A model generated the notes under the pieces. The model was not told the DNA's origin, searched no databases, and saw nothing but the letters and a program-made list of their open reading frames with translations. A stretch of DNA of 38,560 nt from a virus (Duplodnaviria; Caudoviricetes): positions 1 through 38,560 of IMG/VR virus record IMGVR_UViG_3300037195_000852; one strand, given 5' to 3'. The position numbers and the translations under genes are program-made. Positions 598-38,560 of the stretch are shown piece by piece (position 1 is the first letter of the stretch; every line of letters starts with the position of its first letter).

Positions 598-1338
598 TTA
601 TTTTAATACATTAGTTCGACTTCCAGCATTCATCACTTGTTTCCATAGCTCATCCGTTTCAGACTTTTTCTCAGGCTGATGACCTTGAAGGACTCCAGCT
701 GGATGAGGATTAGCTTGATTTTGACGGATTTGATCTAATGGATTATCCGTGACAGTTTCTGGACTTTGAGTTACAGCTTGCCACATTTTAAGTACATTGT
801 CCAAACCATATTCGGATGGATGTTTATCAGCAAATTCAAAGAAAGATGCTTGTTCTTGCTCGTTTAACCCTTTATTGGCTAAATCAGCACGAAGACTTGA
901 TCTCCCTTGTTGTGCCTTAATTCCACCGACAGCTTGATCTACTGCACCATTTATGGTTTCCTGCATCTCCTGCATCCTAAATTTATAGGATTTCGATGAT
1001 GGGTCATTGTAGGCTTCCCAAGGATCAAATTCATCAGGCTTTAACGTAACACGTTGTTGTTGATTATTTGGCTGACCACTTACTTCACCCATAAGGTTCT
1101 GTACCAAGTCTGGACGTGATTCCAAAAATTTCCCAACTTTTTCGTATTGTTTAAGCTGTTGATTTTCAGCGTAGAGTTTATCCTTCTCAGATTGGTGGTA
1201 CTTAGCTTGAGCCTCCCAATCCTCCTTAGAACTCTCTTCGTTGATTGCTCCTTCATCTTGCCCTACTTCTGCACTGAGTTGGCCATTTGTATTTTGACTC
1301 TCAACAACAGAAGCGATAACGTCTTCATTATTTGACAT
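598..1338 (-). CDS. Capsid scaffolding protein
   Basis: Acidic, Q/E-rich coiled-coil protein between portal and capsid; SD AAGGAG. Confidence 0.75.
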   Translation of the reverse strand: MSNNEDVIASVVESQNTNGQLSAEVGQDEGAINEESSKEDWEAQAKYHQSEKDKLYAENQQLKQYEKVGKFLESRPDLVQNLMGEVSGQPNNQQQRVTLKPDEFDPWEAYNDPSSKSYKFRMQEMQETINGAVDQAVGGIKAQQGRSSLRADLANKGLNEQEQASFFEFADKHPSEYGLDNVLKMWQAVTQSPETVTDNPLDQIRQNQANPHPAGVLQGHQPEKKSETDELWKQVMNAGSRTNVLK

Positions 1339-6853: not shown

Positions 6854-6888
6854 AGTAGAATATACATCAGTTTTTTAAATTTTACAAA
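6854..6888 (-). promoter_or_regulatory. Putative promoter giving a leaderless terS mRNA
   Basis: Minus strand reads TTGTAA-17nt-TATATT-5nt-ATG, with no SD. Confidence 0.55.
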
Positions 6889-6898
6889 TTTCTCCCAG

Positions 6899-6933
6899 TA
6901 TATAATATATAATATATAATATATAATATATAA
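6899..6933. repeat. Tandem repeat (TATATAA)x5
   Basis: Five perfect 7-nt units. Confidence 0.95.
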
Positions 6934-7149
6934 TAAAGTTCCTTTGTAAAGTAATATTGCTGTAGACTGTGTGTCAGAAATCACAAAAATAGCGATTTTT
7001 AAAAAATTACATTAGAATGAGTGCAGGGGTTTTTTTATCGGCATACCCCCGCATAGTTGTCCTCGTGGGGGTTCGAATAAGGTTACTTTTTTCATTAATT
7101 TATAATTTCTATTGATTTTTATGTAATATTTGAGGAAAGGGAGAACAAT

Positions 7150-7177
7150 AAAAAAACCGCTCATTACAAGCGGTTTT
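7150..7177 (-). terminator. Intrinsic terminator, possibly bidirectional
   Basis: Stem AAAACCGCT/AGCGGTTTT with a 7-nt loop; T7 tail on the minus strand and T4 on the plus strand. Confidence 0.7.
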
Positions 7178-7307
7178 AATATTGCTAGGGTTAATTACTA
7201 GTAGGTGTTTAGATCATAGTACTAGTGTGTTAATGTGCGTGTGTTAACCTTATGTGTACGTGAATATATATAAGGGCTTCAAATTTAACGTGTGCTATAC
7301 GTTCCCA

Positions 7308-7451
7308 TTAATTTACCTCCCTATTCTCTATCACCTTAATAGTGTTTATTCTCATTTTTTTACCATCTTTAATTAAATATAGTTTTCCTCTCTTACTTAA
7401 ACATATATCTAATTTATTAACGTCATCATATACAATCACTTCATCTTTCAT
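7308..7451 (-). CDS. 47-aa hypothetical protein, leftward gene in the control region
   Basis: SD GAAAGGT 6 nt before ATG; MKDEVIVYDDVNKLDICLSKRGKLYLIKDGKKMRINTIKVIENREVN; below the ORF-track cut-off. Confidence 0.65.
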   Translation of the reverse strand: MKDEVIVYDDVNKLDICLSKRGKLYLIKDGKKMRINTIKVIENREVN

Positions 7452-7490
7452 ATTATTACCTTTCTCATTTAATTAAATACTAACCCTATA

Positions 7491-7538
7491 ATATAAACAT
7501 ATAAACATATAAACATATAAATATTTATATATTTAAAT
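7491..7538. repeat. Tandem 8-nt repeat (ATATAAAC)x3 plus three degenerate units
   Basis: ATATAAAC ATATAAAC ATATAAAC ATATAAAT ATTTATAT ATTTAAAT. Confidence 0.85.
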
Positions 7539-7543
7539 ATTAC

Positions 7544-7573
7544 TTGTATCATATATATATTTGATATTATTAT
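7544..7573 (+). promoter_or_regulatory. Putative major early promoter
   Basis: TTGTAT-18nt-TATTAT; also TGnTATTAT at 7562-7570, with an AT-rich upstream region. Confidence 0.55.
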
Positions 7574-7577
7574 ACTC

Positions 7578-7603
7578 ATCCCTTCGGGGATTGCTTTTTG
7601 ACA
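7578..7603 (+). promoter_or_regulatory. Hairpin plus boxA-like antitermination element
   Basis: ATCCC-TTCG-GGGAT hairpin immediately followed by TGCTTTTTGACA (rrn boxA consensus TGCTCTTTAACA). Confidence 0.55.
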
Positions 7604-7698
7604 TTGAGGGATTAATAAAAGGATAGTAGATTAGAAAGATAAACTTTTATTAATGGAAAGTAATTCACTATAAATCACTTAAAAAAGGAAACAAAATA

Positions 7699-8130
7699 AT
7701 GTCCAATAATAATGATCTATATAAATCACTTGGTTTTAAAAAAACAGTATCAACAAAAAAAACCAATGGAAAGTTGAGCTTAGAAGGTGAAATTAAGAAA
7801 GGGATAAAAAATGCCGTACATTCTTTCTTATTGGAAGAGTATCCGCACCTTTACAAGCAATTGGAAAAAACCACCATTATCAAAACGGACAAAAAGGATG
7901 ATACAAAGGTGGCGGACGTTGGAGACGTTGAAGGTTATCATTTATTAATTCCAATTGGAACGGATAGAGAGATAAAAAACAACGGAAACAAAGTAACTCT
8001 AACAAATGCCGTTAAAGTATCAAATCCTCAAATTTACTTACAAGGTGTCCAAAATAATGTTTGTGAATTTGTAAAAGAAGGTGGAAAAGTGTTAAGGTGG
8101 GACAACGACAAAAACCAATTTACAAGTTAG
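7699..8130 (+). CDS. First early gene, hypothetical Lys-rich protein
   Basis: SD AAAGGAAA; 143 aa; followed by its own terminator. Confidence 0.85.
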   Translation: MSNNNDLYKSLGFKKTVSTKKTNGKLSLEGEIKKGIKNAVHSFLLEEYPHLYKQLEKTTIIKTDKKDDTKVADVGDVEGYHLLIPIGTDREIKNNGNKVTLTNAVKVSNPQIYLQGVQNNVCEFVKEGGKVLRWDNDKNQFTS

Positions 8131-8150
8131 ACTTGTAGATTAAAACAAAT

Positions 8151-8184
8151 AACCCTTGCTGATTAATTTTGGCAAGGGTTTTTT
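8151..8184 (+). terminator. Intrinsic terminator
   Basis: Stem AACCCTTGCT/GGCAAGGGTT followed by a T-run. Confidence 0.85.
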
Positions 8185-8244
8185 GTTACCTTTAATTTAA
8201 GTAATTATTTATAAATAATAGTAAAAGGAAAGGAAAAGCAAATT

Positions 8245-8487
8245 ATGTTGAATGAAAATCAGTACGATATAAGAAAGGAAAGCCTGATGGATGGTGTTAT
8301 TAGGTTTACCTGCATACCGAAGTTTCAAACTTGTGGTACTTGTAAAGGAAAGGTAGAGCAGGGAAAAATGACAGCAGTTAAGTATCCACTTATCAGAAAT
8401 AAAGTGAGATATATTATAAATAAAATAGTCTGTCCTAGTTGTTATCCACAAGTAAAAGAAATACTAAACAATAACCCATATAAATAA
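8245..8487 (+). CDS. Small Zn-finger protein
   Basis: CGTC...CPSC; SD AAGGAAAGG. Confidence 0.75.
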   Translation: MLNENQYDIRKESLMDGVIRFTCIPKFQTCGTCKGKVEQGKMTAVKYPLIRNKVRYIINKIVCPSCYPQVKEILNNNPYK

Positions 8488-8503
8488 CAGGAAGGGCAAA
8501 CTA

Positions 8504-8695
8504 ATGGTAGAAATAAATGTAAAGGAATGGAATGAAACAGAAGGTAGAATCAGATACTACAAGGAATCGGTTCTGAAAAATGGAAGGAAGTGTCATCATT
8601 CTGTATTTGTTAAGGATATAAAAAAGGCAATGCCTTTGAGATATGATACATTCCAGAAGCAAATGTACACAAAAGGTAAATGGAGGGCTGTATAA
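8504..8695 (+). CDS. Hypothetical early protein
   Basis: SD GGAAGGG; tightly packed with neighbours. Confidence 0.65.
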   Translation: MVEINVKEWNETEGRIRYYKESVLKNGRKCHHSVFVKDIKKAMPLRYDTFQKQMYTKGKWRAV

Positions 8696-8771
8696 TGCCA
8701 GCATCACCAATAACTAAAGAAGTAACACTACCTGATAATAAGAAATACTAAACAATAATCCATACAAGTAA
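8695..8771 (+). pseudogene. Chimeric gene relic: 5' end of a paralog of gene 9081 fused to the 3' end of a paralog of gene 8245
   Basis: 8695-8739 matches 9081-9125 at 40/45 nt; 8740-8771 matches 8456-8487 at 29/32 nt. Confidence 0.8.
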
Positions 8772-9963: not shown

Positions 9964-9987
9964 TTAAATAACAGAAAGGAAAAACAA

Positions 9988-10224
9988 ATGAGTAAACAGG
10001 GACTAGCATGGAGTAAACTAAATGAGTTCATATCAAAAAATACTGGAATGTATATGCAAGACTTACCAGACTTTGATATACATAACTGGGTTGAAGATGA
10101 CTTCACAGAGAAAGAAATAGATGGTCTTATACCAGATATGGCTTGGGAAGTTCTTGACAATGCTGGAATGGACAGAAAGACTGTAAATACAATATGTTAT
10201 GGTGAAGACTGTGATGAGTGGTAG
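9988..10224 (+). CDS. Hypothetical acidic protein
   Basis: Preceded by the AACAGAAAGGAAA cassette; D/E-rich. Confidence 0.8.
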   Translation: MSKQGLAWSKLNEFISKNTGMYMQDLPDFDIHNWVEDDFTEKEIDGLIPDMAWEVLDNAGMDRKTVNTICYGEDCDEW

Positions 10225-10390
10225 AACTGTACAGCTTAAAGGACTAGACCTATTTGTATATCTTATGGAGAGGTTTGGTAATACTCCAGAACAAGCACTG
10301 GCAAGTATGAAAGAGCATGGGCAGGATACCAAAGATGCTGAGTTATTTGTCAAAATGTATAATAAACAGAAAGGAAATAAAAATGAATAA
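10214..10390 (+). CDS. Hypothetical early protein (start probably at MSGRTV)
   Basis: ORF-track 10199..10390; the later in-frame ATG reduces overlap with the upstream gene. Confidence 0.65.
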   Translation: MSGRTVQLKGLDLFVYLMERFGNTPEQALASMKEHGQDTKDAELFVKMYNKQKGNKNE

Positions 10391-10559
10391 CTATATGTTT
10401 GCTGAGTTTCAAAGTAAAGATGAATATCAACAGTCTTATAAATCAGTAATGGATAAGATGCCATATACTGACCAATTTGAGCTTGTTGTATTCATAGAAA
10501 GGTTAAGAACAACAATGCTCTGCGGAGTAGAACCAATAACTAAAACAGAAAGGAAATAA
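10383..10559 (+). CDS. Hypothetical early protein
   Basis: Start reassigned to the ATG after the AACAGAAAGGAAATAAAA cassette; same frame as track ORF 10317. Confidence 0.75.
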   Translation: MNNYMFAEFQSKDEYQQSYKSVMDKMPYTDQFELVVFIERLRTTMLCGVEPITKTERK

Positions 10560-10561
10560 AA

Positions 10562-10879
10562 ATGAAACTACTAACTAAAGAAATAAAAGAACAAGCACAG
10601 AAACAATATGATAAAGGTGCTGATATGGATCAGATGGTGGTAGCTAAATACTTTGGTGGCAGTTGGACATGGTATTTAATGAATCTTGATCCAGAGGACA
10701 GTGACTATGCTTGGGGTATAGTTAATGGTCATGCTGTAGAAATGGGTTCTTGGCAGATGAGTGAACTTCAGAAAGTTAAGATTAAACCATTTGGACTCGG
10801 TATTGAGCGTGATCTGTACTTTGAGCCAATGAAGGCAAGTGATGTATGGGAACAGCTAAATAAGGGGGAACACGTATGA
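10562..10879 (+). CDS. DUF2958-family protein (resembles DarA C-terminal domain; anti-defence candidate)
   Basis: MKLLTKEI...VVAKYF...WTWY...AWGIVNG..EMGSW..SEL...GLGIERDLYFEP pattern. Confidence 0.8.
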   Translation: MKLLTKEIKEQAQKQYDKGADMDQMVVAKYFGGSWTWYLMNLDPEDSDYAWGIVNGHAVEMGSWQMSELQKVKIKPFGLGIERDLYFEPMKASDVWEQLNKGEHV

Positions 10880-12764: not shown

Positions 12765-12838
12765 TAGGGGTGGGTTTTGTATATTCCATTGTCATATACT
12801 TGCGGGTTCTTTCAGCCTGCACCTTTCGCCCACCCCTA
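12765..12838 (+). ncRNA. Putative three-way-junction RNA element
   Basis: Outer stem TAGGGGTGGGT/GCCCACCCCTA; inner stems GTATAT/ATATAC and TGCGGGTT/AGCCTGCA. Confidence 0.5.
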
Positions 12839-13457: not shown

Positions 13458-14291
13458 ATGAAAACTACAATAAAAAGACCAGTGTCAGTTAAAAGACCAC
13501 TGGTAACAAACCATCGGAGTGTAACTAAGTCTTCTGACCAAGTTGTAAACACTGTGCTTAAAACAATGGACTATGACATGTTTGGATATTTTGAGGGCAA
13601 CAGAGAAGTAAATGAGTCTCATGTAAGGAATCTAATGGAATCATTTACCGAAAAACAGCTTCCAGTTCCAATAGTTGTTGATGAATTATATCGTACAGGT
13701 GATGGTCAGAACAGACTTGAGGCATGTAAAAGGCTTGGAATCCCAGTTTATTACATAATAATTCCAGGTTTAACATTAAAAGATGTCAAAAGACTAAACT
13801 CAAACACTAAGTCGTGGAGCTGGAAACAACATATGGATAGTTTCTGTGATCTTGGTTATGAGGATTACATAACCTATAAAGAGTTCTTCAATAGCTACGA
13901 ACTAAACCATACTGAGTGTATGCAACTCTGTTTAGGGCATACAAGCCTACGGAAAGGTAAAAGGAAAGGTCAAAAAACAATGGCTAAGGCTTTTAATGAT
14001 GGGCAGTTTAAAATAGTCCAACATGGTAAGGCTATTGAACAGGCAAATATGATAACTGAGGTGAAGCCATATTTTGATGACTTTACACACCATCATTTTG
14101 TTCGTGCACTAATTCATTTGTTTAACAAGAAACAGGATGTGTTCAATCATAGTGTCTTTATTAATAAACTTGCAAAAAGAAATCCCAAGCTTGTACATCA
14201 GGGAAATAGAAATGATTATCTAAGAAATATAGAAGAAATATATAATCATGGAGCAAGAAATAAAGTTAGATTATTCACATACACTGACTAA
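13458..14291 (+). CDS. ParB/Srx N-terminal domain protein
   Basis: NREVNESHV..L..S....PIVVD....DGQNRLEAC. Confidence 0.8.
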   Translation: MKTTIKRPVSVKRPLVTNHRSVTKSSDQVVNTVLKTMDYDMFGYFEGNREVNESHVRNLMESFTEKQLPVPIVVDELYRTGDGQNRLEACKRLGIPVYYIIIPGLTLKDVKRLNSNTKSWSWKQHMDSFCDLGYEDYITYKEFFNSYELNHTECMQLCLGHTSLRKGKRKGQKTMAKAFNDGQFKIVQHGKAIEQANMITEVKPYFDDFTHHHFVRALIHLFNKKQDVFNHSVFINKLAKRNPKLVHQGNRNDYLRNIEEIYNHGARNKVRLFTYTD

Positions 14292-14620: not shown

Positions 14621-14797
14621 ATGAATAAGACCGACAAGGAATTTACACATTTCCAGTTCAAAATTAAACGTGTTCTGTGGGATAAATTCAAGATAAAAGT
14701 CATACGTGATGGCTGTCCAACATACAGAGAGAAAATAGAAGAGTTGATTGAGGGGTATGTTCACACGTGCAAGCTGAAAGAACCCGCAAGTAAATGA
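14621..14797 (+). CDS. 58-aa ribbon-helix-helix (Arc/ParG-like) regulator
   Basis: Hand translation MNKTDKEFTHFQFKIKRVLWDKFKIKVIRDGCPTYREKIEELIEGYV...; SD GAGGT; ATGA-coupled to the next gene. Confidence 0.7.
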   Translation: MNKTDKEFTHFQFKIKRVLWDKFKIKVIRDGCPTYREKIEELIEGYVHTCKLKEPASK

Positions 14798-16783: not shown

Positions 16784-16898
16784 GTTAAAGAAAAAGCTTG
16801 CACAGATGGCTGTAAAGGCTTTAAAAATGAAGCCTGATACTGTGGCTAAAAAGCTTAACATAAGCAGAGCTACAGTGTATAGGTATTTAAAAAAGTAA
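16767..16898 (+). CDS. 43-aa HTH protein (resolvase-type HTH)
   Basis: MIFRSRLKKKLAQMAVKALKMKPDTVAKKLNISRATVYRYLKK. Confidence 0.75.
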   Translation: MIFRSRLKKKLAQMAVKALKMKPDTVAKKLNISRATVYRYLKK

Positions 16899-21721: not shown

Positions 21722-22306
21722 ATGGGCACTACAGAGGCTGTTAATCAGCTGTATTACATTGATAGTGAAGGGAACTATCATAAATGTCACAAATTACTAC
21801 CAGACATACGAAGAATATTTGGAGAGATAGAAGTCATGAATGGAGAATTAGTAGAAATAATAACAAATAAACAGGCAGGCAAGAACTTTAAAGATTCACT
21901 TAACATTGGACATAGAAGTGAAGATGCTGTATGTGCTAAGATAAAAAAGAAGTATCCTAAAGCACATGTCATGGAAGGATACTGTAAAGGCTATGATATA
22001 TATGTACCAGAGACTAAAAAGAAAATAGAAGTAAAGCAAGATAAGAAATCAAACTATACAGGTAATATAGTTGTTGAGATTGAGTTTAATGGTAAGCCTT
22101 CCGCACTTTCAACTACCGAAGCAGACTACTGGGTGTTTGATGATGGTGAGATTTATATATGGATAACGCCTGAGACATTGAGACAAGTAGTAGAACCATT
22201 TAAGCCTGTTAAGTTTGTTGGTAATGGAGACAACAAGGAAAAGCTGGCATACTTAATAAAGAAAGATATTATTAAAAGGAATGCTTTAAAGGTGGATAAG
22301 TATTAA
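21722..22306 (+). CDS. PD-(D/E)XK nuclease-fold protein
   Basis: GHRSE...YDIY....IEVKQD...TGNIVVE; possible later start at M39. Confidence 0.7.
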   Translation: MGTTEAVNQLYYIDSEGNYHKCHKLLPDIRRIFGEIEVMNGELVEIITNKQAGKNFKDSLNIGHRSEDAVCAKIKKKYPKAHVMEGYCKGYDIYVPETKKKIEVKQDKKSNYTGNIVVEIEFNGKPSALSTTEADYWVFDDGEIYIWITPETLRQVVEPFKPVKFVGNGDNKEKLAYLIKKDIIKRNALKVDKY

Positions 22307-25300
22307 TACCTATCGTAGTATGGAGAGTAATTAAGTTTATACTTTGACTGCTGTACAGTTGACAACAATTTCCTAAGCTTAAAGTTAAAGGTTTTCTCAG
22401 AATTTAAAGCTTGTCTATATACGTCATTATCATAATTCTTTAAATAATTCAAAAACTCACTACGCTTAGACATCTCTCTTCCTTTAACCTCGGCACTAAA
22501 ATTGACAGGATTCATACTTTTTAATGATTGTTCAATACTTCTCATTGCCTGCTTTCTTCTATACCCCTGACTTATATAGCCATCTCTAAGCATCTCCGTA
22601 TCTATCTGTGCCAATGCTGCATAGTAAGATTTAGCAAATTCTTTCTCATCTCCTCTCCAAAAATTATTTTTTAAATCTCTGTAGTATACTTGACGTGCTG
22701 TGTTTAGTTTAAACTGAGGAGTATCATAACCTTTTTCTTTTTTAAATGAGCGAGCAGCAGTTCTAAATTTGTTCCATTCCTTCACCTCTGGGTAAAATAA
22801 TCTATCCCATTGCCTAGATGTATGTCCAACTATAGAGACGCTTGTCTTGGTTACATGCTTCATAGCATCAGTCCATCCCTTTGGATTGGTAGGATCAGTC
22901 ATTACTGTGGATACACCTTCAACCAAAGACCTTGCACCTCTAATCATATATGGCTCAAAGAAATCTGTAGCAAAACTGGGGTCTACACCAAACTTTGTAT
23001 CATTATTCCCTCCGTATATTGGAGATGAATGAGGATTAAGTATATGAGAAAACATTCCAAGAAACTCTGCTCTCCATGCCATTTGTAGAACTGTCTTCCA
23101 TTTATCATCACTCATCTCATGCATTTGATCTTGACCCATAATGTATTTATAGAATGCATATAAACCTGCACCTGTAAATACAGAGCCAGCAGAATATCTA
23201 ACAAGTGGCATTACATTCCCTACTTCCCATATAGGTCTAAATACATTTGTCCACATTCCTGCCGTAGCAGATGTAGCCATTCTTGTAAAAAGTGTAAGAG
23301 GTCTCCACGCCCCAGAACTCATCCAAAGAGGTAATGTAATTGGATCAGTAAGACCTTGTGTAGCCCCTTGTCCAAAAAACTCTGCTTTTTTCATCATCCA
23401 TGCATATTGATAAGAGTTGTTAGTCTCTGTATATGGATTAGTTTTAGTTTTAGAGTTCAAGTCTTCATACTTTGTTTTTTTAATAAATTGTATTTCTTCT
23501 GGTGTCCATCTAAATAAATTTTTAGCTGTAAATTCAAATTGCTTGTTAAGCATTTTTTTGCCCATATATTTATGAACTACATTTTTATGACCTTTAATAG
23601 CATCAACAAGTTGCTGTGCATACATCCTATTGGCAGTACTAGAGCCTATTCTAGCTATATCTTCCGTTGGCGAAACTAAATTAATTTTAAATATAGACTC
23701 TGTTGTTAAATATTTTCCTAAAGGTAATTTTTCTGTTAGTCCTATTTCCTCAAATATACTTTTTTGAGTTTTAGTGACAGTATCCATGAAATTTGTATAA
23801 CCTTTTTCGCCTTGTTCTTTTCTGTGAACTGGATCAAAAGTCTTTAACCATCCCTGAAGAGTAGTTCGTAAAGGTCTTATAGCCATATCAAAGGTAAAAC
23901 CAACTGTTACATTCTTAAAACCAGGTACAATTGGTGTTGACATACCCGAAACAGCACCAGTAGATGCTAATATTCCGCCAAACCTATATAATCCCCTATT
24001 ATGCCTTTCTTTATAAGAACCTTCCATGCCAAGCGTTGATTCTAACCACATGCCAATATAATCAGCCCACTTAGAATCCACCTTTAATCCATCTGGTGCT
24101 TTTGCTCTTCCACTCAAATAATCCAATAGATTATTTTTCCAACTACCCACCTTTAGCTTCTTTCCAAGTGATGAAAATTCTGGAACATGTCTCCATGTTG
24201 ATAAATGATCTGCCTGTGAATTTCCATAATAATCAAAGCTATCATTCCAATTTTCTAAATAAGATTTAATTTTCTGAGTCTTTCCTTTTGCATCTTTAAT
24301 AGTAACGTATCTTGGGAATAATACACCACGTTCCATGAAAGCTGGATTTTCAAGTTTATGTGGCTTCATTGTCATATAATTATATACTATATCTGCAACA
24401 GTAGCTTTAGTCGTATCGTCATTTTTAAGTCTTGCCCGCTCTTCACTCACATCATCTTTATATTTATCAAGAGCCTTTTTAAACTGCGAGTCTTTCTTAA
24501 AATCTTTTTTTACAGGCTTTTTTATATTCTTTCTTATTTGAGCATTGATATACTTTGTGGTTTCCTCAGCCATCATCTTTTCAAGCCCTATGGCTTCATC
24601 AAAAAACTTCGTAGAAGACTCTATAGCTTCAAGTAGTTTTGGATTTACTTTTCTCACATGGTAATCTTCTTGGTACATTTTCCCACGCAAGTCTTCAAGC
24701 TGTTCCCTTATGCGAGGATTTTTTGTAACCTCTTCTCCATACTTACCCCACAGTCCCCAAATTTCATCAAAATAATCTTCTAAATGTTTCTTAACCCTAT
24801 ACTCCCAAGTACCTTCTTTATAAGAATTATCTATTCTCCTTATCTCTTCAGAGGTGAGTTCACCATTTTTTCTCCAAAACCTTTGTATTTCAGGGTCTTT
24901 TATAAGAATAGCTAAATCCATGTCTTTTATCTTGGGAACTTCTTTTTTAATTAGATTGGTATACTTATTTTTTATTGCTACAACAGCTCTTTTAGTCACA
25001 AGCCTATCTAAGAATGGTTGAATAATCCTCTGACCACCTTTCCCTGCTAGCTTTTCATTAAAAAATACTTGCATTGGACTCGTAAAAACTCTTCTAACAG
25101 CACCTGGAAATTTACCAAATGTATCTGAATGCATTTTTTCTATCATCATATCAGAATGTGATTTTTCTGGTTGTAATTTTTCATGCCCACTTATCCAACT
25201 TAATATATAATCAACAGTACTTTTAGTTTGAATATTTTCCCACTCACCATCCTTGACACCAATAGATTTAAGCTTTTCTTTTATCTCAGAATTCTTTACA

Positions 25301-28300
25301 CCATATTCTGTAGCAAGATCATCAGCTACTTGCTTCCTACCTCTCCACCTTCTATTTGTTTTTAAATAATTCTCGCTTCCTATGAAGTTAATATAATCAG
25401 TTAGATTGTCAGTACTAAGAGCATTTTCTGCATCACGACTAAGAGACTTTACGCCTTTACCAAAAAGACCTTCAGTATCTTCAAACAATTGTTTTTCATA
25501 AGCCTTCTTACCTAATTGTTTTTCACCCTCAGAAATACCAATATTCTTTTGCAACTCTTTGGCAATACCAACAAGCCTATTCCTTTCTTTTTTACCTGCA
25601 AATTCACTATACTCTAGCTTGCTTGGAGCTTTTTCTAATGCTTTTAATACATATTTATAATTCTTAATCCACTCACTATGAAAAGCAACGTCACCAATAT
25701 TAGGATTCTTTTTAAGTGCATTTGGATTTTTACTTACAAAGTCACGCCATTCCATGTGCCTCTCTATAAAATTATTAACAATTTGCCTAGCAGCTATCTT
25801 ATACCCAGAAGCTTCAGGAGTTCCACTAAGAGCATTGATGACAATATTTTTATCTTCTAAGTCAGACTTTTGTTCTTTCTTAATCATGCCTTTTAACTTG
25901 CCAGCAAGTGAAGGCTTTTCATGTGGTATCTTAGATTTTTTAATATATCCAACAGCAATATCTACATCTCTTGCAGGCGGAGCAGGTGGTTTATCTGGAA
26001 ATTCTCCTACTACTTTATCATATAAGGCTTCAATTCCTTCATTTTTGGCAAATTTTATCCTTACAGTTTTCCTTCCTGCATCTAATGCTTCATAATATCT
26101 ATGTAAACCATCTAATATTGTTACCTTCCCATCCCTTATACCTACAATTATAGGAGCATCTGGAGTTCTAGATTTTGGAGTTCCTTCTAAAAACTTTCTA
26201 TCTAAAGCAACAATACTTCCTATATCAACATCATGCTCGCTCCTTAAAAAATCTTCTTTATTCTTATTCCTTGCAGCTCTATCTATTACACTTATAGCAT
26301 CCCCTTTTAACTCAGCTTTAGGCTCTTTAGGTATTACAGTAGGAATTTCGCCCTCCTTTAAAGCACCTGAAGATACAAACACTCTTTCAATAATATCTAA
26401 CTGCTCTCTAAGAGGCATATCCCTCATTTGATAAATCTTAGCTATTGCACCTTGAACATCTCCAATAGTAAAACCTACTTCTTCAGGTGAAAAACTTTTT
26501 GCCTTTAATCCAAGCTGCGAAAGTATTGTCCTAGCATCTCTATAATTAGCCCCTTTGCCCCATATATGCTCTCCAACTTCTGCAAGAATACCTCTTTTTA
26601 TTTTCTTACCATCAACAACTTTTTCTATTTTTTTACCACCAAATAAAACTCTATTTTTATTTTTAGGAACTTTTCCTAAGTCATCAATAGTGAAATCACG
26701 TAATGCAAATAGTTTTTCAGCAAGGGCTTTTGGAATGAGAAGCGGTCTAGTTACAGTTCCCTTCTTCTTTATTTTAGAGGTATCAATATAATAGCGACCA
26801 TCCTTTCCTTCTTCTTTTGCTATATCAGATAATCTAAATTTATTAACCTCTTCCCTTCTAAGTCCAAATTTAGCAAGCTCTGTAAGTACGCCACCCTCTT
26901 TGCCTGCCACCTTTTTTGCTGATTCTATTTTTTCTGGAGTTATAGCATCAAGTGCACTACTTTTTATCTCACGTTTTATTACTTTTTCAAATCTTGCCTT
27001 ATTTGCCTCTTCAAAACTAATGCCCTCAACTACATTTTTATTCGTCCACTTGCCCTTAGACCAAGCACCGAATGTAGAAAAAGGACTTATATCTTTAGAT
27101 GTTAATTTATTTTTACCCTTTCTCTTTAAAATAACGTTGTTATTGTAGTCGTAGACATCTTGGTTTGTAACGTCTGCCCACTCTTTTCTCTTGTTGTCTT
27201 TAACCCATTTTAAAAAATCACCTACAGTTTTTGAGTACTCTGTATTCCATCCACCCTCACTTGCATATTGAAAAAGAGCATTAAGATCATCTTCTGATAC
27301 CTTATCTTTATATTGATCTAATCTTTTAAGTGCTGTTTGTTTTTTATTATAGTTTTCTTTTGATGTTTTATATAATTCATTGGTTTCAAAATCTTTTTCT
27401 AATGGCTTTTTTAAGGATTCAATATCTTTCTTTATTTCTAAGACTTTTGCTCTTTGCCTCTCAATATCAGCACCGCCAGTTTTTCTAATGATGATGTCAG
27501 CAACATCTTCTCCTGCTAGTCTTTTAGCATTTTTTTGGGCATCTATATATATTTTGGTTAACTCAGGAGTTGACAAAATATCATTTTTAAAATCTTCTGG
27601 AGACCTTCTTGTGCTCTTATCTTCCATGCTATATAATGCACGTGCATCTTCCTTGTCTTTTTTAAATTGTTCATCAGCAGTAACTTTTCTTCCAATAGCT
27701 TCTTTTTCTAGGTTTCCACCTTCAACATATGCATTATCTAGTTTTGCCCTCCACTCTAATAACTTTGCCTCACTAACATTTGCAGTTTTAAGACCCTCCT
27801 CTATCACACCTTGTGACTCAAAAATATCATTAGTTAATTCTTGTATTTTACGTCTTTGTTCTGTAGCATCTTTTATAGAAAGATTGTCCTTGAGCCTCAT
27901 TTCATGATAGTTTAATTTATTTATAAGATCATCAGCATGCACTAATTTTTTCAAAAGGTCAGAAGAACTTTCTATTTTCAAATTATCTTCTAAATCTCTT
28001 TTGGCTTGCCTCATAGTATCTGCAATCTTTAATGATTCTGCATCAGACTTACCTTCTGTCTCACGAATAATATTATTTATCTCGCTCTTTTCACTAAATA
28101 CCTGACTCTTAGGATTAAAAGGAGCTTCAGTACCCATGTCACGAGTTCTTTTAAAATCATCATAGAATTTATCAAGCGATGCTCTATATTCTTTTAATAT
28201 GGGGATAGTCCTACTTAAAGTTTTATTTTTAATACCCATTAACTTAACAAAGCCAGCATCAACAATTAATTGTTCTAAGAGCTGATCGCCTTTAAGCTCA

Positions 28301-29241
28301 CCATTTTTAATTGTATCAGCTATATTAAATGCTTGGAGAGATGCAACCTCAGCAGCATATTGTCCATGCTTTCCAGTATACTTCATTAATTTTTCAAGCT
28401 CTGGAACTGTGTATTGCTTGCCAAAACCACCACCAGCGTCAGGACGTTTCCCAATCTTCATTTCTTTTAACATCTTGTATCTAAGAAAATTAGATTCCAT
28501 AGCACCACCGACACCACCCATAACAGCACCAATCATAGCACCATGAACATATCCATGAGCAATACCTTCAAATGGATCATCACCCGCAATGTCAGCAGCT
28601 AATCCTCCTTTAGCAGCTTCATACAATCCAATTGTATTACCACTCATTATTGCTTTATTAAGACCAATCCCAAGAGAACCCTCAGCAAGACCAGCCTTTT
28701 TGCCTAAAGCATTTGCCTTACCTATAAGCCCTTTAACAATAGCACTCTCAGCAACTTCTTTTGCACCAGCTTTACTAGCAGCAGCTTTAAGACCAGCACC
28801 CATAACAGAACCAACGAAAGGAGCACCAATTCGCAATGTAAGAAGATCGAGTGGCATCATAAAACTTCCAACGCCAGCAAGTATTTTCTCGCCTATATTT
28901 AATTCATCATAATCTCTTTCAATATTATAATCAAGCTTACCATTATACCATTGATCTAATGTGCCTTGAAGAGAATTTGCATAAGCATGTTTAACCCATT
29001 CCCATGAATCATCATCAATATCCTTTAACACTAACTCATTCCATCCAGATGGAGATACATCTGCCTGCGGAGCATAAGTTTTCTTGCCACCAACATATCC
29101 CATTTCTTCCCAATCTTCTACGTCAGCATAAGGATCGGACTGTCTACCCATATGGTAAATAAACTCATCAGGCATTGTAGAGCTATATATATTGGGATGT
29201 CTCTTTCTAAGGTCAGCTACATACTGTTCACGTGTTACCAT
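22303..29241 (-). CDS. Giant internal-virion/DNA-ejection protein containing tyrosine-recombinase and ParB/Srx modules
   Basis: Last and largest gene of the late operon, after tail and smaller internal proteins. Gly/Ala-rich amphipathic N-terminal region; recombinase motifs at about aa 668-940; ParB motif at about aa 1028-1065. Confidence 0.8.
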   Translation of the reverse strand: MVTREQYVADLRKRHPNIYSSTMPDEFIYHMGRQSDPYADVEDWEEMGYVGGKKTYAPQADVSPSGWNELVLKDIDDDSWEWVKHAYANSLQGTLDQWYNGKLDYNIERDYDELNIGEKILAGVGSFMMPLDLLTLRIGAPFVGSVMGAGLKAAASKAGAKEVAESAIVKGLIGKANALGKKAGLAEGSLGIGLNKAIMSGNTIGLYEAAKGGLAADIAGDDPFEGIAHGYVHGAMIGAVMGGVGGAMESNFLRYKMLKEMKIGKRPDAGGGFGKQYTVPELEKLMKYTGKHGQYAAEVASLQAFNIADTIKNGELKGDQLLEQLIVDAGFVKLMGIKNKTLSRTIPILKEYRASLDKFYDDFKRTRDMGTEAPFNPKSQVFSEKSEINNIIRETEGKSDAESLKIADTMRQAKRDLEDNLKIESSSDLLKKLVHADDLINKLNYHEMRLKDNLSIKDATEQRRKIQELTNDIFESQGVIEEGLKTANVSEAKLLEWRAKLDNAYVEGGNLEKEAIGRKVTADEQFKKDKEDARALYSMEDKSTRRSPEDFKNDILSTPELTKIYIDAQKNAKRLAGEDVADIIIRKTGGADIERQRAKVLEIKKDIESLKKPLEKDFETNELYKTSKENYNKKQTALKRLDQYKDKVSEDDLNALFQYASEGGWNTEYSKTVGDFLKWVKDNKRKEWADVTNQDVYDYNNNVILKRKGKNKLTSKDISPFSTFGAWSKGKWTNKNVVEGISFEEANKARFEKVIKREIKSSALDAITPEKIESAKKVAGKEGGVLTELAKFGLRREEVNKFRLSDIAKEEGKDGRYYIDTSKIKKKGTVTRPLLIPKALAEKLFALRDFTIDDLGKVPKNKNRVLFGGKKIEKVVDGKKIKRGILAEVGEHIWGKGANYRDARTILSQLGLKAKSFSPEEVGFTIGDVQGAIAKIYQMRDMPLREQLDIIERVFVSSGALKEGEIPTVIPKEPKAELKGDAISVIDRAARNKNKEDFLRSEHDVDIGSIVALDRKFLEGTPKSRTPDAPIIVGIRDGKVTILDGLHRYYEALDAGRKTVRIKFAKNEGIEALYDKVVGEFPDKPPAPPARDVDIAVGYIKKSKIPHEKPSLAGKLKGMIKKEQKSDLEDKNIVINALSGTPEASGYKIAARQIVNNFIERHMEWRDFVSKNPNALKKNPNIGDVAFHSEWIKNYKYVLKALEKAPSKLEYSEFAGKKERNRLVGIAKELQKNIGISEGEKQLGKKAYEKQLFEDTEGLFGKGVKSLSRDAENALSTDNLTDYINFIGSENYLKTNRRWRGRKQVADDLATEYGVKNSEIKEKLKSIGVKDGEWENIQTKSTVDYILSWISGHEKLQPEKSHSDMMIEKMHSDTFGKFPGAVRRVFTSPMQVFFNEKLAGKGGQRIIQPFLDRLVTKRAVVAIKNKYTNLIKKEVPKIKDMDLAILIKDPEIQRFWRKNGELTSEEIRRIDNSYKEGTWEYRVKKHLEDYFDEIWGLWGKYGEEVTKNPRIREQLEDLRGKMYQEDYHVRKVNPKLLEAIESSTKFFDEAIGLEKMMAEETTKYINAQIRKNIKKPVKKDFKKDSQFKKALDKYKDDVSEERARLKNDDTTKATVADIVYNYMTMKPHKLENPAFMERGVLFPRYVTIKDAKGKTQKIKSYLENWNDSFDYYGNSQADHLSTWRHVPEFSSLGKKLKVGSWKNNLLDYLSGRAKAPDGLKVDSKWADYIGMWLESTLGMEGSYKERHNRGLYRFGGILASTGAVSGMSTPIVPGFKNVTVGFTFDMAIRPLRTTLQGWLKTFDPVHRKEQGEKGYTNFMDTVTKTQKSIFEEIGLTEKLPLGKYLTTESIFKINLVSPTEDIARIGSSTANRMYAQQLVDAIKGHKNVVHKYMGKKMLNKQFEFTAKNLFRWTPEEIQFIKKTKYEDLNSKTKTNPYTETNNSYQYAWMMKKAEFFGQGATQGLTDPITLPLWMSSGAWRPLTLFTRMATSATAGMWTNVFRPIWEVGNVMPLVRYSAGSVFTGAGLYAFYKYIMGQDQMHEMSDDKWKTVLQMAWRAEFLGMFSHILNPHSSPIYGGNNDTKFGVDPSFATDFFEPYMIRGARSLVEGVSTVMTDPTNPKGWTDAMKHVTKTSVSIVGHTSRQWDRLFYPEVKEWNKFRTAARSFKKEKGYDTPQFKLNTARQVYYRDLKNNFWRGDEKEFAKSYYAALAQIDTEMLRDGYISQGYRRKQAMRSIEQSLKSMNPVNFSAEVKGREMSKRSEFLNYLKNYDNDVYRQALNSEKTFNFKLRKLLSTVQQSKYKLNYSPYYDRY

Positions 29242-29247
29242 ATATAT

Positions 29248-31446
29248 TTAAGACTCCTGTAAAAATTTTCTAAATGCATCAAAATCTTTTGCAAATTTGG
29301 CATATCCAGCATCAGTAGCAACAACATCAGGAGAATATATTAAGTCTATCCGTTCCTTGGCATATTCCAAAGGACTCAAATCAGATGGCTCTGCTAAGAG
29401 CGATGCTCTTTTAAATGCCCCAGGATACCAAACTCTTTTACTATAATCTTTTGTTTTAAAGAAATATTTATAATCACCTTCTGCATATGGTTTTCCATAT
29501 CTACCACTTTTCCTTAACCACTTTTCAAATTTATCTTTAACAAATTGTTGTGTAGCTTCTTTCTTAGAACCTTTATATTTGTTTTTTTCTGATGCACTTA
29601 ATTTACTAAATTTATCTGATACAACTGAAGCTAAATTAGACTGTGCTTTTATAAATGGTTTGCTAGTTGAGGGTACAACTGGTTTCCCATCATCAATTTT
29701 ATATAATGTATATTCATCAACTTTAGGCTTAGGCTCTTTAGCTTTAGGAAAATCCCCTTTCCATCCTTCCTGCTTAGCAATCGCATTGGCAAGTTTCTCT
29801 GTAGAAACAGTGTCTATTTTAGCATTAGGAGATAAATTTAGTTCCTTAGATAAGTTTTTTAAATATACTTCCCTATCAGTTGCTGTGTACCCATAATCGC
29901 CATCACCCTTGCCATATATAAATTGTTTTAATGTATCATTCCTACCTTTATCAGCTTCAATTTGATTGTATAGTGCCTGCCATCCAGAATCTGGAGTATC
30001 AAATGTTGCAAATCCAGTTGGAGTTTTGCCCGTAGCATCAGTTTGATTAGCAAATTTTAAATTACCAGGATTATTCCATTCACTAAATTTGCGTGGCTCA
30101 CCAGCTGGCATAGTAGGTACTTCTGGAGTAACAGGCTTATGAAGCTCTGAAACAGCAAAAGATTCTTCGCCTGTAGGAGTAACACCAACGCCAACATCGG
30201 GAAGTTTCCCAGAAGGAAGTATTTTTTTAACATCTTCTTTAAGTTGTGCTTCTCTATCTAAATCTAATTCTTCCTTCGACTTTCTCCAAGGAGTACGTTT
30301 ACCCATCCACTCAGAATATTTACTTCCTGTTTCTTTTTCAAAATTAGCATCGGCTTCATCCATCATTTGCTCAAGAGAGACTTGATTCTTCCTTACCTCA
30401 GAAACATTTATTAGAGTTCCATCTTCAGGAAGGGGAAACTGCCAATTTAAAGGATCGTCTACCCAATCAATATATTCTTTTAATGTAATGTCTCCCTTCT
30501 CATATTCTTTATGTTTTTCTTTTGCATTCTCATCCATTGTCGCTGCTGCTTTTTGAAAGTCAGGGGAATTTACTACAATAGTATTTTTAACATGCTGGCT
30601 ATAAGCATTCGTAAATTGATCTTGATAGCCTTGTTGCCTTGAGTTTGCAGCAGACGCAATAGTTTCATTCCTTCCCCTTATTTCATCTGGGTTTCCATCT
30701 CTTATAGATTGGATCATCATTCTTTGTTCGTCTTCGGATATAATAGTACCCATTGGATCAAATGTATTAATTTGTTTTAAAAGTTGATTATACCCTCCAA
30801 TCAAGTTAATATTAACCCTGTCATTGTCAGCACTAAAGCTCCTATTATTTGAAAAATAATCTGCATTATTCTTCATAAACTTTTTAAATTCAGATATTTC
30901 TTGTGTTCCTTTATACAACCTTTCTTTAAGCTCTAGCTTTTTATCAGCATCATCTGCATATAAGTCATCCCAATCAAGGCCAGACAACTCCTCGGTAATA
31001 TCAAGAAGGAGCTTCTCGGTTTCAGGGATTTTATAGGAAGTAAAATAATTATAATGATTATTTAGCGATCTATACTCCTTTAATTTATTAATCTTTTTAT
31101 CATAAATGTCTATAAAATCAGCAGACTGATTTGGAAATCTCTTCATGTCTTCATTTTTAATTCTAGTAAGATTTGCTTCTAATTCATCAATACCTTTATT
31201 TGTATACATAGATTCATCAGATAATGCATTCATCATAGGCATACTTAGCCTTGCATCAAATCTTTGTTGTGCCAAAAGTTCTCGTCCATATTGCTCATAT
31301 TTAAACGTAGCAGCTTGTTGTTGTGCAACTGGGATATTTGCAACAGCAGAAGCTATAGGCTTTACCCACCAAGGCTGATTAATTTGTTTTGATTTTTCTC
31401 GCTTTGCAAGTTCCATTTCAATTTGTCTCATCATATCACTTGCCAT
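29248..31446 (-). CDS. Internal virion protein with lysozyme-like (NNPGNL) peptidoglycan hydrolase domain
   Basis: aa ~458-562: NNPGNL...GFATF.T...GWQAL..QI...TLKQFI...AIAKQEG. Confidence 0.7.
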   Translation of the reverse strand: MASDMMRQIEMELAKREKSKQINQPWWVKPIASAVANIPVAQQQAATFKYEQYGRELLAQQRFDARLSMPMMNALSDESMYTNKGIDELEANLTRIKNEDMKRFPNQSADFIDIYDKKINKLKEYRSLNNHYNYFTSYKIPETEKLLLDITEELSGLDWDDLYADDADKKLELKERLYKGTQEISEFKKFMKNNADYFSNNRSFSADNDRVNINLIGGYNQLLKQINTFDPMGTIISEDEQRMMIQSIRDGNPDEIRGRNETIASAANSRQQGYQDQFTNAYSQHVKNTIVVNSPDFQKAAATMDENAKEKHKEYEKGDITLKEYIDWVDDPLNWQFPLPEDGTLINVSEVRKNQVSLEQMMDEADANFEKETGSKYSEWMGKRTPWRKSKEELDLDREAQLKEDVKKILPSGKLPDVGVGVTPTGEESFAVSELHKPVTPEVPTMPAGEPRKFSEWNNPGNLKFANQTDATGKTPTGFATFDTPDSGWQALYNQIEADKGRNDTLKQFIYGKGDGDYGYTATDREVYLKNLSKELNLSPNAKIDTVSTEKLANAIAKQEGWKGDFPKAKEPKPKVDEYTLYKIDDGKPVVPSTSKPFIKAQSNLASVVSDKFSKLSASEKNKYKGSKKEATQQFVKDKFEKWLRKSGRYGKPYAEGDYKYFFKTKDYSKRVWYPGAFKRASLLAEPSDLSPLEYAKERIDLIYSPDVVATDAGYAKFAKDFDAFRKFLQES

Positions 31447-31449
31447 AAT

Positions 31450-32340
31450 TTAAGTACCTCCTGCATCTGGTAGCTGTGTTAAAAAATGTAAAAATGTTTC
31501 TTCTTTATTTGGTACTCTACCCCCACCCTTGAACCAACCTGCTGGAGCTCCTCCCATCCAGTCTTCTATCTCAGTTTCATAAGCTCCCATTGCTTGTTCT
31601 TTGAGTCCATATAATCCCTTTTCTTCACCAAGTTCAGCTCGATCCATACCAAGTCCATATGTACCATATGCAGATTCAGCTCCACTCTTTAGTGCCCTTT
31701 GCCCACGTATTTTTCCTCTCATGCCAGCACCAGTAGTGGGAGCACCACTAATATCATAAGCACTTTCTTGAAGACCATACATACTCTCACCAAATGTTTG
31801 CTGTACACCTCTTTCTTCAAGAGCACGCTCACGCTTTAAAAAGTCTTTATCTTCTTGAGACACTCCTTGAAACTTTGGGAGCATCTTGTTAATTTGAGCT
31901 AGCAATTCATCTTGCGAAACTTTTCCTGACACAAATCCAGGGATTTTATTTTTTATATTATCAAAAACTGTTTGAACTGTAAGTGGATTACCCTGAGCAT
32001 CAACAAAATCTTCAGCAGAAATATTTGCAGCACCCCAATCTGTGCGTTCAAAGTCTTCCTCAGGCATATATGATTCATTAGCTAATAGAACGCTACCATA
32101 ATGATTTGAAGTATCGTCACTAGAGCCTGCACCCCTATATTGAGTAGTCTCCCCTGTATCATTAAATCGAGAACCATCCCATTCATAAATATCATAAAAT
32201 GTTATATGAGCTTGGTCGTCATCACCTGGACGACCTTGACCAACAGTTATTCTTTCACCAGCCTCCCATGTTCTTGTTGCTACATGTGGTGCACTAGGAT
32301 TAGAAAAACCAGGATCACGTAAAGTACCTCCATTAGACAT
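31450..32340 (-). CDS. Putative internal virion protein
   Basis: Position in the ejection cluster; Gly/Ala-rich; C-terminal FKGGGRV. Confidence 0.6.
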   Translation of the reverse strand: MSNGGTLRDPGFSNPSAPHVATRTWEAGERITVGQGRPGDDDQAHITFYDIYEWDGSRFNDTGETTQYRGAGSSDDTSNHYGSVLLANESYMPEEDFERTDWGAANISAEDFVDAQGNPLTVQTVFDNIKNKIPGFVSGKVSQDELLAQINKMLPKFQGVSQEDKDFLKRERALEERGVQQTFGESMYGLQESAYDISGAPTTGAGMRGKIRGQRALKSGAESAYGTYGLGMDRAELGEEKGLYGLKEQAMGAYETEIEDWMGGAPAGWFKGGGRVPNKEETFLHFLTQLPDAGGT

Positions 32341-32342
32341 AA

Positions 32343-33878
32343 TTATATCCTTTCTAACATTTCTGCTAATGATTGTTTGTTGCTACCACCAAGTGTTGAA
32401 CCTTTTGCATCAAAATAATCTGCAATTGTTCCACCACCTTTATATTTTGGAACTTGACCACCTTGTTGAAAGTCAAGTCTATTATGTAACTGCATTTCTT
32501 GTTGTAATTTCTCAGCACTAGTTTGCGGTAGTTGAAATCCTTTACCTTTTCCATAAATACTTTGAAGAATACTTGAGGTATCAAGTGAACTCCCTTGTCT
32601 GTCTGGCAAAGGAAAATCAAAAGGACTATATGGTAATACATCTGGTTGTGCTGGCATATCACGTAAGACAGGCATTGTTGCTGAAATATCTGTAGCAAAA
32701 CTTTCAGATGGAGTAAATCCCCCTATTTCAGTAAAATCAGCCCCAACTGGAGAAGGATCAAATAGTTGTTTATACATTTCAATATCCATATCGGTAGTAT
32801 CTGGAGCAACACCTTCTGTGGTAGTTATAAAATCCATTAAAGCTTTTGAAGATGGATCATCAAATGTATCTTCAGATGCAAATGGCACATTAGGTCGTCT
32901 AGGCATTGGAGTCCCTTCTGGGCCAAAACCTTCATACTGTTCATAAAATTTCTCACCCAATTCTTGAGCCACCTGCTGAGGTGTTTTGCCTATATGCTCT
33001 CCAAAGCTACCATACTTATCATACTGCTTAATGTCAGCGTCTCTCCAACTTAAACTTGAAGACAAAGGTGGTGCTGTAGGTAATTTACTTATATTTTCTC
33101 TAGCTATAGTTTCTACATCTACTCCATATCCTTCGGGCATAAAAGATACATTCTTGAAAGCTTCTGATTTATCACCACCATAAAGCTTATCCATTTCAGC
33201 TAAAAGACTTTTATGTCTTACATCGGCTGTTTTCGATAAGAATTCTTCATATCCTTCCTCTGCTCCACGCATTTTTGCCTGTTTCATTCTTGATACACTT
33301 GTTGGTATTAATCCTTTATCTCCAAACTCAAGTAATTTAAGTTTTGATAAATCTTTTCCTTTCCAAGCCTCACTTATTTTTTCCCCAAGATCACCACTTT
33401 TTACGCCAATCTCTTTAGTAGTAGGATCAACACCAATCTTAGGAACAAGAGCACTAATATATGACATTCCAATATCAGCAGCTAAACTCTCAGGTGACCA
33501 ACCACGCTCTTTTATACCCTCTTTCATTCCTTCTTTAGCTTCTTTTGTAGCCTCTTTTCCATACCCATATATATTTGTAGATTTAATTTTACTTGGATCA
33601 GCCCCCATTTTTAGATGTTTTCTCATTCCTTCTTCACCCCACTTTTTAAATAAACTTGTACCAGCACCTGCAAGAAGAGGAAAAAGTAAACCACCACCAG
33701 TAAGACCAAGACCAGCTAGAGCAGCCTTACTTGCAATACCTGCAAGAGGGCTTAGAACAGTCAATAATCCACTAAGCTTACCTTCTTTGTCTCTTTCTCT
33801 TCCAAGGGCTGAGGCAATGCTTTTCTTAGCTTTTTCTCTCTGTCCTTCTTGTAAAAATCTACTTAGACTTATTGCCAT
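32343..33878 (-). CDS. Putative internal virion (pilot/ejection) protein
   Basis: N-terminal Gly/Ala/Leu hydrophobic hairpin; C-terminal FQQGGQV and YKGGGTI. Confidence 0.65.
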   Translation of the reverse strand: MAISLSRFLQEGQREKAKKSIASALGRERDKEGKLSGLLTVLSPLAGIASKAALAGLGLTGGGLLFPLLAGAGTSLFKKWGEEGMRKHLKMGADPSKIKSTNIYGYGKEATKEAKEGMKEGIKERGWSPESLAADIGMSYISALVPKIGVDPTTKEIGVKSGDLGEKISEAWKGKDLSKLKLLEFGDKGLIPTSVSRMKQAKMRGAEEGYEEFLSKTADVRHKSLLAEMDKLYGGDKSEAFKNVSFMPEGYGVDVETIARENISKLPTAPPLSSSLSWRDADIKQYDKYGSFGEHIGKTPQQVAQELGEKFYEQYEGFGPEGTPMPRRPNVPFASEDTFDDPSSKALMDFITTTEGVAPDTTDMDIEMYKQLFDPSPVGADFTEIGGFTPSESFATDISATMPVLRDMPAQPDVLPYSPFDFPLPDRQGSSLDTSSILQSIYGKGKGFQLPQTSAEKLQQEMQLHNRLDFQQGGQVPKYKGGGTIADYFDAKGSTLGGSNKQSLAEMLERI

Positions 33879-38224: not shown

Positions 38225-38560
38225 TTATTTATTATTAAGAAGATAATCAAGACCAAGCATTTTAATCAACTCTGGATTAGGCTTTAAATCCTCAACACTC
38301 TCAACACCCTTTAACTGATTTCCATATTTTTTTGACTCATCTACCTCTGCTACAATATCTAATATATTACCAGGTCTTAACGAGCCAGCGTCATCCCTAA
38401 AAGGAACTTGTTGTTGGGCATACCCAGTCTCACCAGATAGTGCTTGATATAAAATATCTAAAAGAGTACCTTTCGATGAAGCTCGCCTACTCCCAACATT
38501 AGAAGAAGTTGTTGAATAAGGAGCTAGAGCAGCCCCTTGATTCCAAGCACCAGAATATCC
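38225..38560 (-). CDS. C-terminal part of a hypothetical late protein; starts outside the window
   Basis: Open from 38560: GYSGAWNQGAALAPYS...PELIKMLGLDYLLNNK*. Confidence 0.65.
   Translation of the reverse strand, partial: GYSGAWNQGAALAPYSTTSSNVGSRRASSKGTLLDILYQALSGETGYAQQQVPFRDDAGSLRPGNILDIVAEVDESKKYGNQLKGVESVEDLKPNPELIKMLGLDYLLNNK

Follow-up and report, generated by a model that had tools for sequence, protein, structure and literature searches.

A tyrosine-recombinase module within giant, predicted ejection proteins of an uncultured phage lineage

The window analysed here is a fragment of 38,560 bases, 78% complete, of an uncultured tailed-phage record (IMG/VR IMGVR_UViG_3300037195_000852). 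On its minus strand it encodes a protein of 2312 amino acids (aa), and in the middle of this giant lies a real tyrosine-recombinase core, composed of a core-binding and a catalytic domain. The module recurs across the lineage as cargo of a known kind of protein, an ejection protein likely injected together with the phage DNA, and such a cargo is apparently undescribed.

A structure model combined with a fold search supported the first-pass annotation, which had proposed a tyrosine recombinase inside the giant protein from the letters alone. Both the catalytic-domain fold of the superfamily and an N-terminal SAM-like core-binding domain were recovered. Cre and Xer were the nearest folds, recombinases ranked above type IB topoisomerases (TopIB), and a nudivirus VLF-1 ranked 43rd in the viral fold search. 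The N-terminal domain is of the recombinase core-binding type, no TopIB-type N-terminal clamp domain being present, and a protelomerase fold was absent among the 50 matches listed. The helix following the tyrosine is placed in a manner which we take to resemble that of the subunit-docking helix of Xer and Cre. The active-site assignment of the same annotation, R795, a lysine, R904 and Y937, is in register with 6en0 and 4a8e. Arg-I, Lys, Arg-II and the nucleophilic Tyr are all present in the window copy, and the canonical His-II and His/Trp-III are not (R901 and D928).

The window copy lies below all Pfam and NCBIfam cut-offs, and searches with this single sequence (Pfam and PHROGs with the whole protein, phmmer against the PDB, NCBIfam) gave no match to the module. 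PF00589 was matched in 3 of 14 records, each time within the giant open reading frame (ORF), so that the Pfam check suggested earlier succeeded for some relatives and failed for the window copy. Because most copies fall below the Pfam and NCBIfam cut-offs, annotation pipelines miss these modules.

Relatives were found via the portal, nozzle-like and DnaB genes. The portal scan confirmed 569 related stretches, the best 80 of which were used (at 68-93% identity); near-complete relatives measure 45-53 kb. Twenty-seven orthologous giants were assembled: besides that of the window, 22 ORFs came from loci that were retrieved and four were database proteins, one of them partial. A 167-aa fragment (P0005) was excluded from the counts, and two of seven representative matches (P0007, P0008) were dropped as repeat artefacts. 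The module is found in 23 of the 27 giants, 19 through an iterated profile (10 of these being its seeds) and four added by eye, namely L129, which passes the PF00589 cut-off, G008 with a weak PF00589 match, G013 with a weak profile match, and L142 on its motifs alone. Since the pairs L139/L140 and L119/L122 are close or near-duplicate, the number 23 overstates independence. The catalytic domain is lacking in four giants, one of which keeps the core-binding domain; in three near-complete genomes the catalytic domain is missing and no substitute for it is present. Other searches added nothing: a word-index homologue search with the giant protein recovered itself alone, those with alignment A2 against longer proteins of up to 2000 aa and with the L129 module returned nothing, pattern scans for the module (viral and metagenome contigs) and for the C-terminus yielded zero confirmed relatives, and the window had zero matches among 50,697 GenBank phages.

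Identity of the modules to the window domain is mostly 10-30%. Nevertheless, the four best-conserved of 316 alignment columns are those of the predicted active site: Y937 (22 of 23), R904 (21), R795 (21) and E798 (19). The first-pass annotation had set conservation of R/K/R/Y in homologous giants as a check, and a clear set is seen, by eye, in 19 of the 23 modules. Counts were lower (R795 10, Y937 9, E798 8, R904 7) when fixed columns were tested on 12 held-out modules, the most divergent of which had box II out of register. His-II behaves differently: it is His in only two of 23 modules, R, K, D or E in 14, and about ten different residues overall. His-III is His in 14 of 23. At the R-K-R-Y positions Cre tolerates substitution least, and these residues are shared with TopIB, which has no equivalent of His-II (PMC2943603). 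With R/K/R/Y kept and His-II variable, the family therefore retains the core shared with TopIB and has dropped the constraint on His-II. The first-pass annotation was right that both His are replaced in the window copy and underrated the weight of this change, because Arg at His-II abolishes Cre recombination (PMC2943603). Either the active site is built unlike that of Cre, or many members are weak or dead, among them the window copy. The latter, in which Arg and Asp stand in for the two His, may have little activity compared with the rest of the family. At the other end of the range stands L129:2986-9483 (-), whose giant bears at aa 609-955 a fully canonical R-K-H-R-H-Y recombinase. L098, its scaffold sister (76% identical downstream), carries a different, non-canonical module.

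The module is under purifying selection, with ratios of nonsynonymous to synonymous substitution (dN/dS) of 0.17-0.36 in both domains of all three orthologous pairs. It has also been repeatedly exchanged between scaffolds. In two pairs the giants share 68-76% identity downstream, yet their modules are only 23-30% identical, and the window scaffold clusters with G001 and L128 (support 100/100), the window module with P0002 and P0004. Approximately unbiased (AU) tests rejected three of four scaffold clades on the module tree (p 0.004, 1e-4 and 0.033; the fourth 0.065) and all four module clades on the scaffold tree; the groups were taken from the opposite tree, L140 and the partial P0003 were omitted so that 21 rows entered the tests, and long branches occur in the module tree. 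L119 and L122 share a module recently, at a dS of 0.06-0.10 versus about 0.6 in the terminal scaffold. Only one small tail-region gene family tracks the module. As a separate observation, the short modules of G003 (L097) and G013 (L121) lack the helix before box I and keep Arg-II and Tyr; these two modules cluster together, and their scaffolds do not. A second core-binding copy proposed in L128 was not supported by the profile.

Table 1. Features of the window related to the giant protein and its module (residue numbers refer to the 2312-aa protein)
Feature	Positions	Strand	Basis
Giant carrier protein, predicted T7 gp16-like third ejection protein	22303..29241	-	2312 aa, Cys-free; orthologues; C-terminal model matches
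N-terminal Gly/Ala-rich conserved scaffold, aa 60-345, one hydrophobic stretch	28207..29064	-	alignment A4, hydrophobicity
Core-binding (SAM-like) domain and linker, aa 650-760	26962..27294	-	
Catalytic domain, tyrosine-recombinase fold, aa 761-958	26368..26961	-	structure model and fold search
Box I: R795 (Arg-I), E798 (Cre Glu176 position)	26848..26859	-	21/23 and 19/23 conserved; register with 6en0, 4a8e
K825-K827, beta2-beta3 loop (catalytic Lys among them not singled out)	26761..26769	-	K826 column 16/23
R901-D-A-R904, HxxR position: His-II replaced by Arg, Arg-II kept	26530..26541	-	sequence, register, alignment
D928 (His/Trp-III position) to Y937 (predicted nucleophile)	26431..26460	-	Y 22/23; His at 928 column 14/23
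Amphipathic helix after Tyr, aa 944-958	26368..26412	-	helix H295-309 in model; post-Tyr sequences
ParB/sulfiredoxin-like domain, DGLHR at aa 1044, lead only	26017..26244	-	Atlas 0.91, cluster with ParB_N in 26% of members
C-terminal conserved helical scaffold, aa 1340-2300	22342..25224	-	alignment A3, model pLDDT 70, Foldseek
Three upstream Cys-free genes (511, 296, 732 aa), other candidate ejection proteins	29248..33878	-	PHROGs matches, Cys counts

The carrier is likely an ejection protein, as had been proposed from gene position; zero Cys and the best, though weak, structural matches of its modelled C-terminal part point the same way. Its gene is the last and largest of a four-gene Cys-free run after the tail genes. 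The neighbours matched phrog_873 (E 5e-8) and phrog_7182, 'tail injection transglycosylase' (E 4e-6), and the 732-aa protein has a transglycosylase-like part. Not a single Cys occurs in 56,618 aa over the 27 giants; for the modules the count is 0 in 7,450 aa, where other ORFs, some spurious frames among them, would lead one to expect about 71. We take the absence of Cys as an adaptation to passage through the envelope. A Cys-free N4 virion RNA polymerase would be a parallel, although the N4 paper PMC13434306 does not contain the word 'cysteine'. The two best Foldseek matches of the C-terminal model were 9jyy_I of the T7 core (E 2.5e-3) and 8vb2_A of the PhiM1 ejectosome (E 0.025), both with TM scores under 0.2, and the third-ranked had an E of 0.16; judging by its length of 1223 residues, 9jyy_I would be gp16. 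In profile searches the carrier scaffold gave no match. The N-terminal scaffold is predicted to be the membrane-crossing part. According to a review (PMC8954989), T7 gp16 is present in four copies in the core and six after ejection, and its residues 411-1118 are assigned to the cytoplasm; this part binds DNA irrespective of sequence and is proposed to clamp the genome. The module occupies the corresponding middle part of the giant. Low-complexity genes near the capsid genes (window 598-1338 and 38225-38560; also G005, G010 and G011), some of which share a GG-x-V motif with the 296- and 511-aa proteins, may encode additional internal proteins of the virion.

What follows the module varies. A HExxH zincin motif follows about 60-170 aa downstream in 19 of the 22 giants long enough to judge (L119, L094, L129 and others) and in none of the four without a catalytic domain. 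The ParB-like DGLHR is found only in the window giant, where this domain had no Pfam match; G001 and L128 have neither motif. No LPD or MPTase Pfam domain was matched in the giants searched. A section of the work on phage polyvalent proteins (PMC5512222, section 8) proposes that their zincin domains release cargo domains.

From these results, a hypothesis regarding the function of the module may be put forward, although our confidence in it stays somewhat short of even: it would act as a nicking-resealing enzyme of loose specificity, similar to a type IB topoisomerase, on the entering genome, and not as an integrase for lysogeny. We favour such an injected clamp-and-nick activity because R/K/R/Y are kept, His-II is free to vary, modules are swapped without a linked site, and the module is dispensable. 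The gp16-like carrier would be packaged in a few copies and, once ejected, would have its middle part on the cytoplasmic side, by the opening of the DNA channel, which is the location proposed for T7 gp16 411-1118. Both domains would then clamp the duplex, Tyr937 would form a 3'-phosphotyrosine link, and the DNA would swivel and be resealed, so that torsion could be relieved during genome uptake, or the ends sealed or joined before phage gene expression. In most relatives the neighbouring HExxH domain might free the module by cutting. Tyrosine recombinases often relax DNA, as stated in PMC8371274. Among the four roles listed in the first-pass annotation, topoisomerase-like action and an inactive clamp fit best, and integration and site-specific resolution of ends are without positive support (no site found, no S24 repressor above the cut-off, no prophage seen).

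The module might instead be an inactive or nearly inactive clamp that grips the entering DNA as a ratchet, brake, shield or repressor, comparable to SroF, a repressor with the integrase fold, its catalytic residues being kept for phosphate binding and the fold. We regard this as rather unlikely: SroF lacks the catalytic Tyr, whereas Tyr is the best-conserved column of the module, with both Arg next, and L129 retains the whole canonical set. Less probable still is a bolder proposal, that a widespread group of marine podoviruses packages a pre-assembled recombinase tetramer in the ejection machine, which would join the ends or integrate the genome at entry without transcription, as a swappable cassette with a His-free chemistry unlike that of Cre and Xer.

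Decidedly unlikely, in our judgement, is a site-specific, Cre/lox-like enzyme that circularises a terminally redundant genome or resolves dimers at a phage site, the copies in the virion core serving as a ready tetramer. Such an enzyme would account for the full two-domain architecture, the recombinase-only Glu, the post-Tyr helix and the nearness of the Cre and Xer folds; the P22-like portal and terminase suggest headful packaging, and the four gp16 copies of the T7 core would suit a tetramer. However, a target site did not emerge. Searches of the records for lox-, telRL- and dif-like sites gave nothing standing out (imperfect sites would escape them), no lox-, telRL- or tRNA-like site was found in 6854-7698, Rfam gave no site in 6854-8250, and a T-loop-like word at 7070 was no commoner than elsewhere. 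Inverted repeats with arms of 11 or more bases and spacers of 6-8 bases numbered 0-6 per record versus 0-4 in two shuffles each, and the only one common to module-bearing records was an AT-only tract. Moreover, the non-coding region upstream of terS keeps about 70-75% identity among G001-G004 even though the modules of these four belong to different clades, which is in keeping with an enzyme that has no set cognate site in that region. The phage also has its own Sak annealing protein and Cas4-like exonuclease, and the three near-complete genomes mentioned above manage with neither catalytic domain nor substitute. Irrespective of this question, the AT-only tract is a 7-base tandem repeat at window 6899-6935, just upstream of terS, present also in G002 and G003. 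The non-coding stretch 6855-7185 is about 70-75% identical in close relatives, a 40-base part (~6995-7038) being kept in distant ones too, and is possibly a packaging site or late promoter.

A virion-delivered integrase, which would insert the genome into the host chromosome without early transcription, is improbable. In its favour, the giant-ORF module is the sole PF00589-like sequence, no other Pfam-detectable integrase having been found in the searched records, and in insect viruses INT-1 and VLF-1 reside in virions, and proviral excision depends on them (PMC3649998). Against it, the 14 records contain no S24 repressor or serine resolvase above the cut-off, small helix-turn-helix (HTH) matches being sub-threshold in three of them; a tRNA scan of 28 stretches found none; and a portal scan of 185,579 genomes gave a single match, a 3.2-kb contig without flanks, in a collection from which the host may be missing. 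In addition, the prophage would have to produce a late structural protein before it could be excised. Contigs of four runs provided no usable junction, and their depth was unfit to rank parts of the gene. Overall, there is no positive sign of lysogeny, with which a cryptic site or an unsampled host remain compatible. One sub-threshold HTH_3 match is an ORF of ~30 aa at 16807-16896 (+), directly after the SSB-like gene, with similar ones in G001 and G007. We give equally little credence to a counter-defence or host-attack effector that caps phage DNA ends (by a hairpin or covalent adduct, as protelomerases, which have non-His residues at His-II) or cuts host or rival DNA: an arms race would explain the frequent exchange, the recently shared L119/L122 module and the polyvalent-protein architecture with HExxH, but no long non-AT palindrome, only AT-rich ones, is common to the records, and the dN/dS of orthologous pairs is purifying, not positive.

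The remaining gene content of the window (P22-like portal, terminase, SU10-like capsid match, DnaB, Sak, Cas4-like exonuclease, Holliday-junction resolvase, endolysin) suggests a bacterial host, and the runs holding the window carry a marine label, with no RNA run among those listed. Gene-start and ribosome-binding segments are duplicated among small early genes (8456-8771, 8695-8739/9081-9125 and 9965-10566), which suggests duplication or exchange of cassettes. An inverted pair of 31 bases, 94% complementary (12792-12822 and 14767-14797, 1.9 kb apart), flanks the region of a ParB-like gene at 13458-14291 (+) (phrog_12305, E 2e-30), which is present in only two of 12 records compared.

Among the phage enzymes known to enter with the DNA, RNA polymerases, modifying enzymes and hydrolases of the cell wall predominate. 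If our hypothesis is true, phages would also deliver a ready DNA-nicking enzyme to the cell before any phage gene is read, a strand-transfer enzyme active in the first seconds of infection, at a time when host nucleases have access to the linear DNA and, for certain phages, its entry proceeds under torsion. DNA handling by the cytoplasmic hub of gp16-like proteins would become testable. The 23 modules are, moreover, natural variants of the active site, many of them carrying residues that inactivate Cre, and they bear on which residues the chemistry needs. A tyrosine recombinase as ejection-protein or virion cargo of a tailed phage was not found described in the open-access literature searched; no recombinase or integrase domain appeared among the matches listed for the ejection-protein literature, the review PMC8954989 does not mention 'recombin', and the main text of Iyer et al. 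2017 (PMC5512222), supplements aside, contains neither 'recombinase' nor 'integrase'. The first-pass annotation knew of no characterised virion-delivered tyrosine recombinase; for tailed phages we found none described either, but the VLF-1 and INT-1 of insect viruses are virion-borne (PMC3649998).

The module shares its core-binding and catalytic domains with Xer/Cre-type recombinases (XerA 4a8e, XerH 5jjv, Cre 1f44, Tn1549 Int 6en0, SSV1 Int 3vcf), with Arg-I, Glu, Lys, Arg-II and Tyr in register; unlike them, it is internal to a late protein of 2.1-2.5 thousand residues, its His-II is unconstrained and no target site was found. In contrast to type IB topoisomerases (3igc, 3m4a, 2f4q, 1a35), the module possesses a core-binding domain of the recombinase type together with the Glu restricted to recombinases, and their His-III, always His (PMC2943603), is Asp in the window copy. 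With T7 gp16-like ejection proteins (PMC8954989) the carrier shares gene position, size and a weak structural match to chains of the T7 core and PhiM1 ejectosome, and with phage polyvalent proteins (Iyer et al. 2017, PMC5512222) the presence of HExxH or, as a lead, ParB-like domains next to the module. VLF-1 and INT-1 of baculoviruses, nudiviruses and bracoviruses are virion proteins of the tyrosine-recombinase family in which, according to PMC3649998, the catalytic Tyr is important; they are stand-alone insect-virus proteins for assembly or excision, whereas the module is part of a bacteriophage injection protein. Finally, the SroF/MrpR/YopR repressors of SPbeta-like phages, as described in bioRxiv 2025.11.27.690993, lack the catalytic Tyr and are expressed from the prophage, whereas Tyr is the best-conserved residue of the module.
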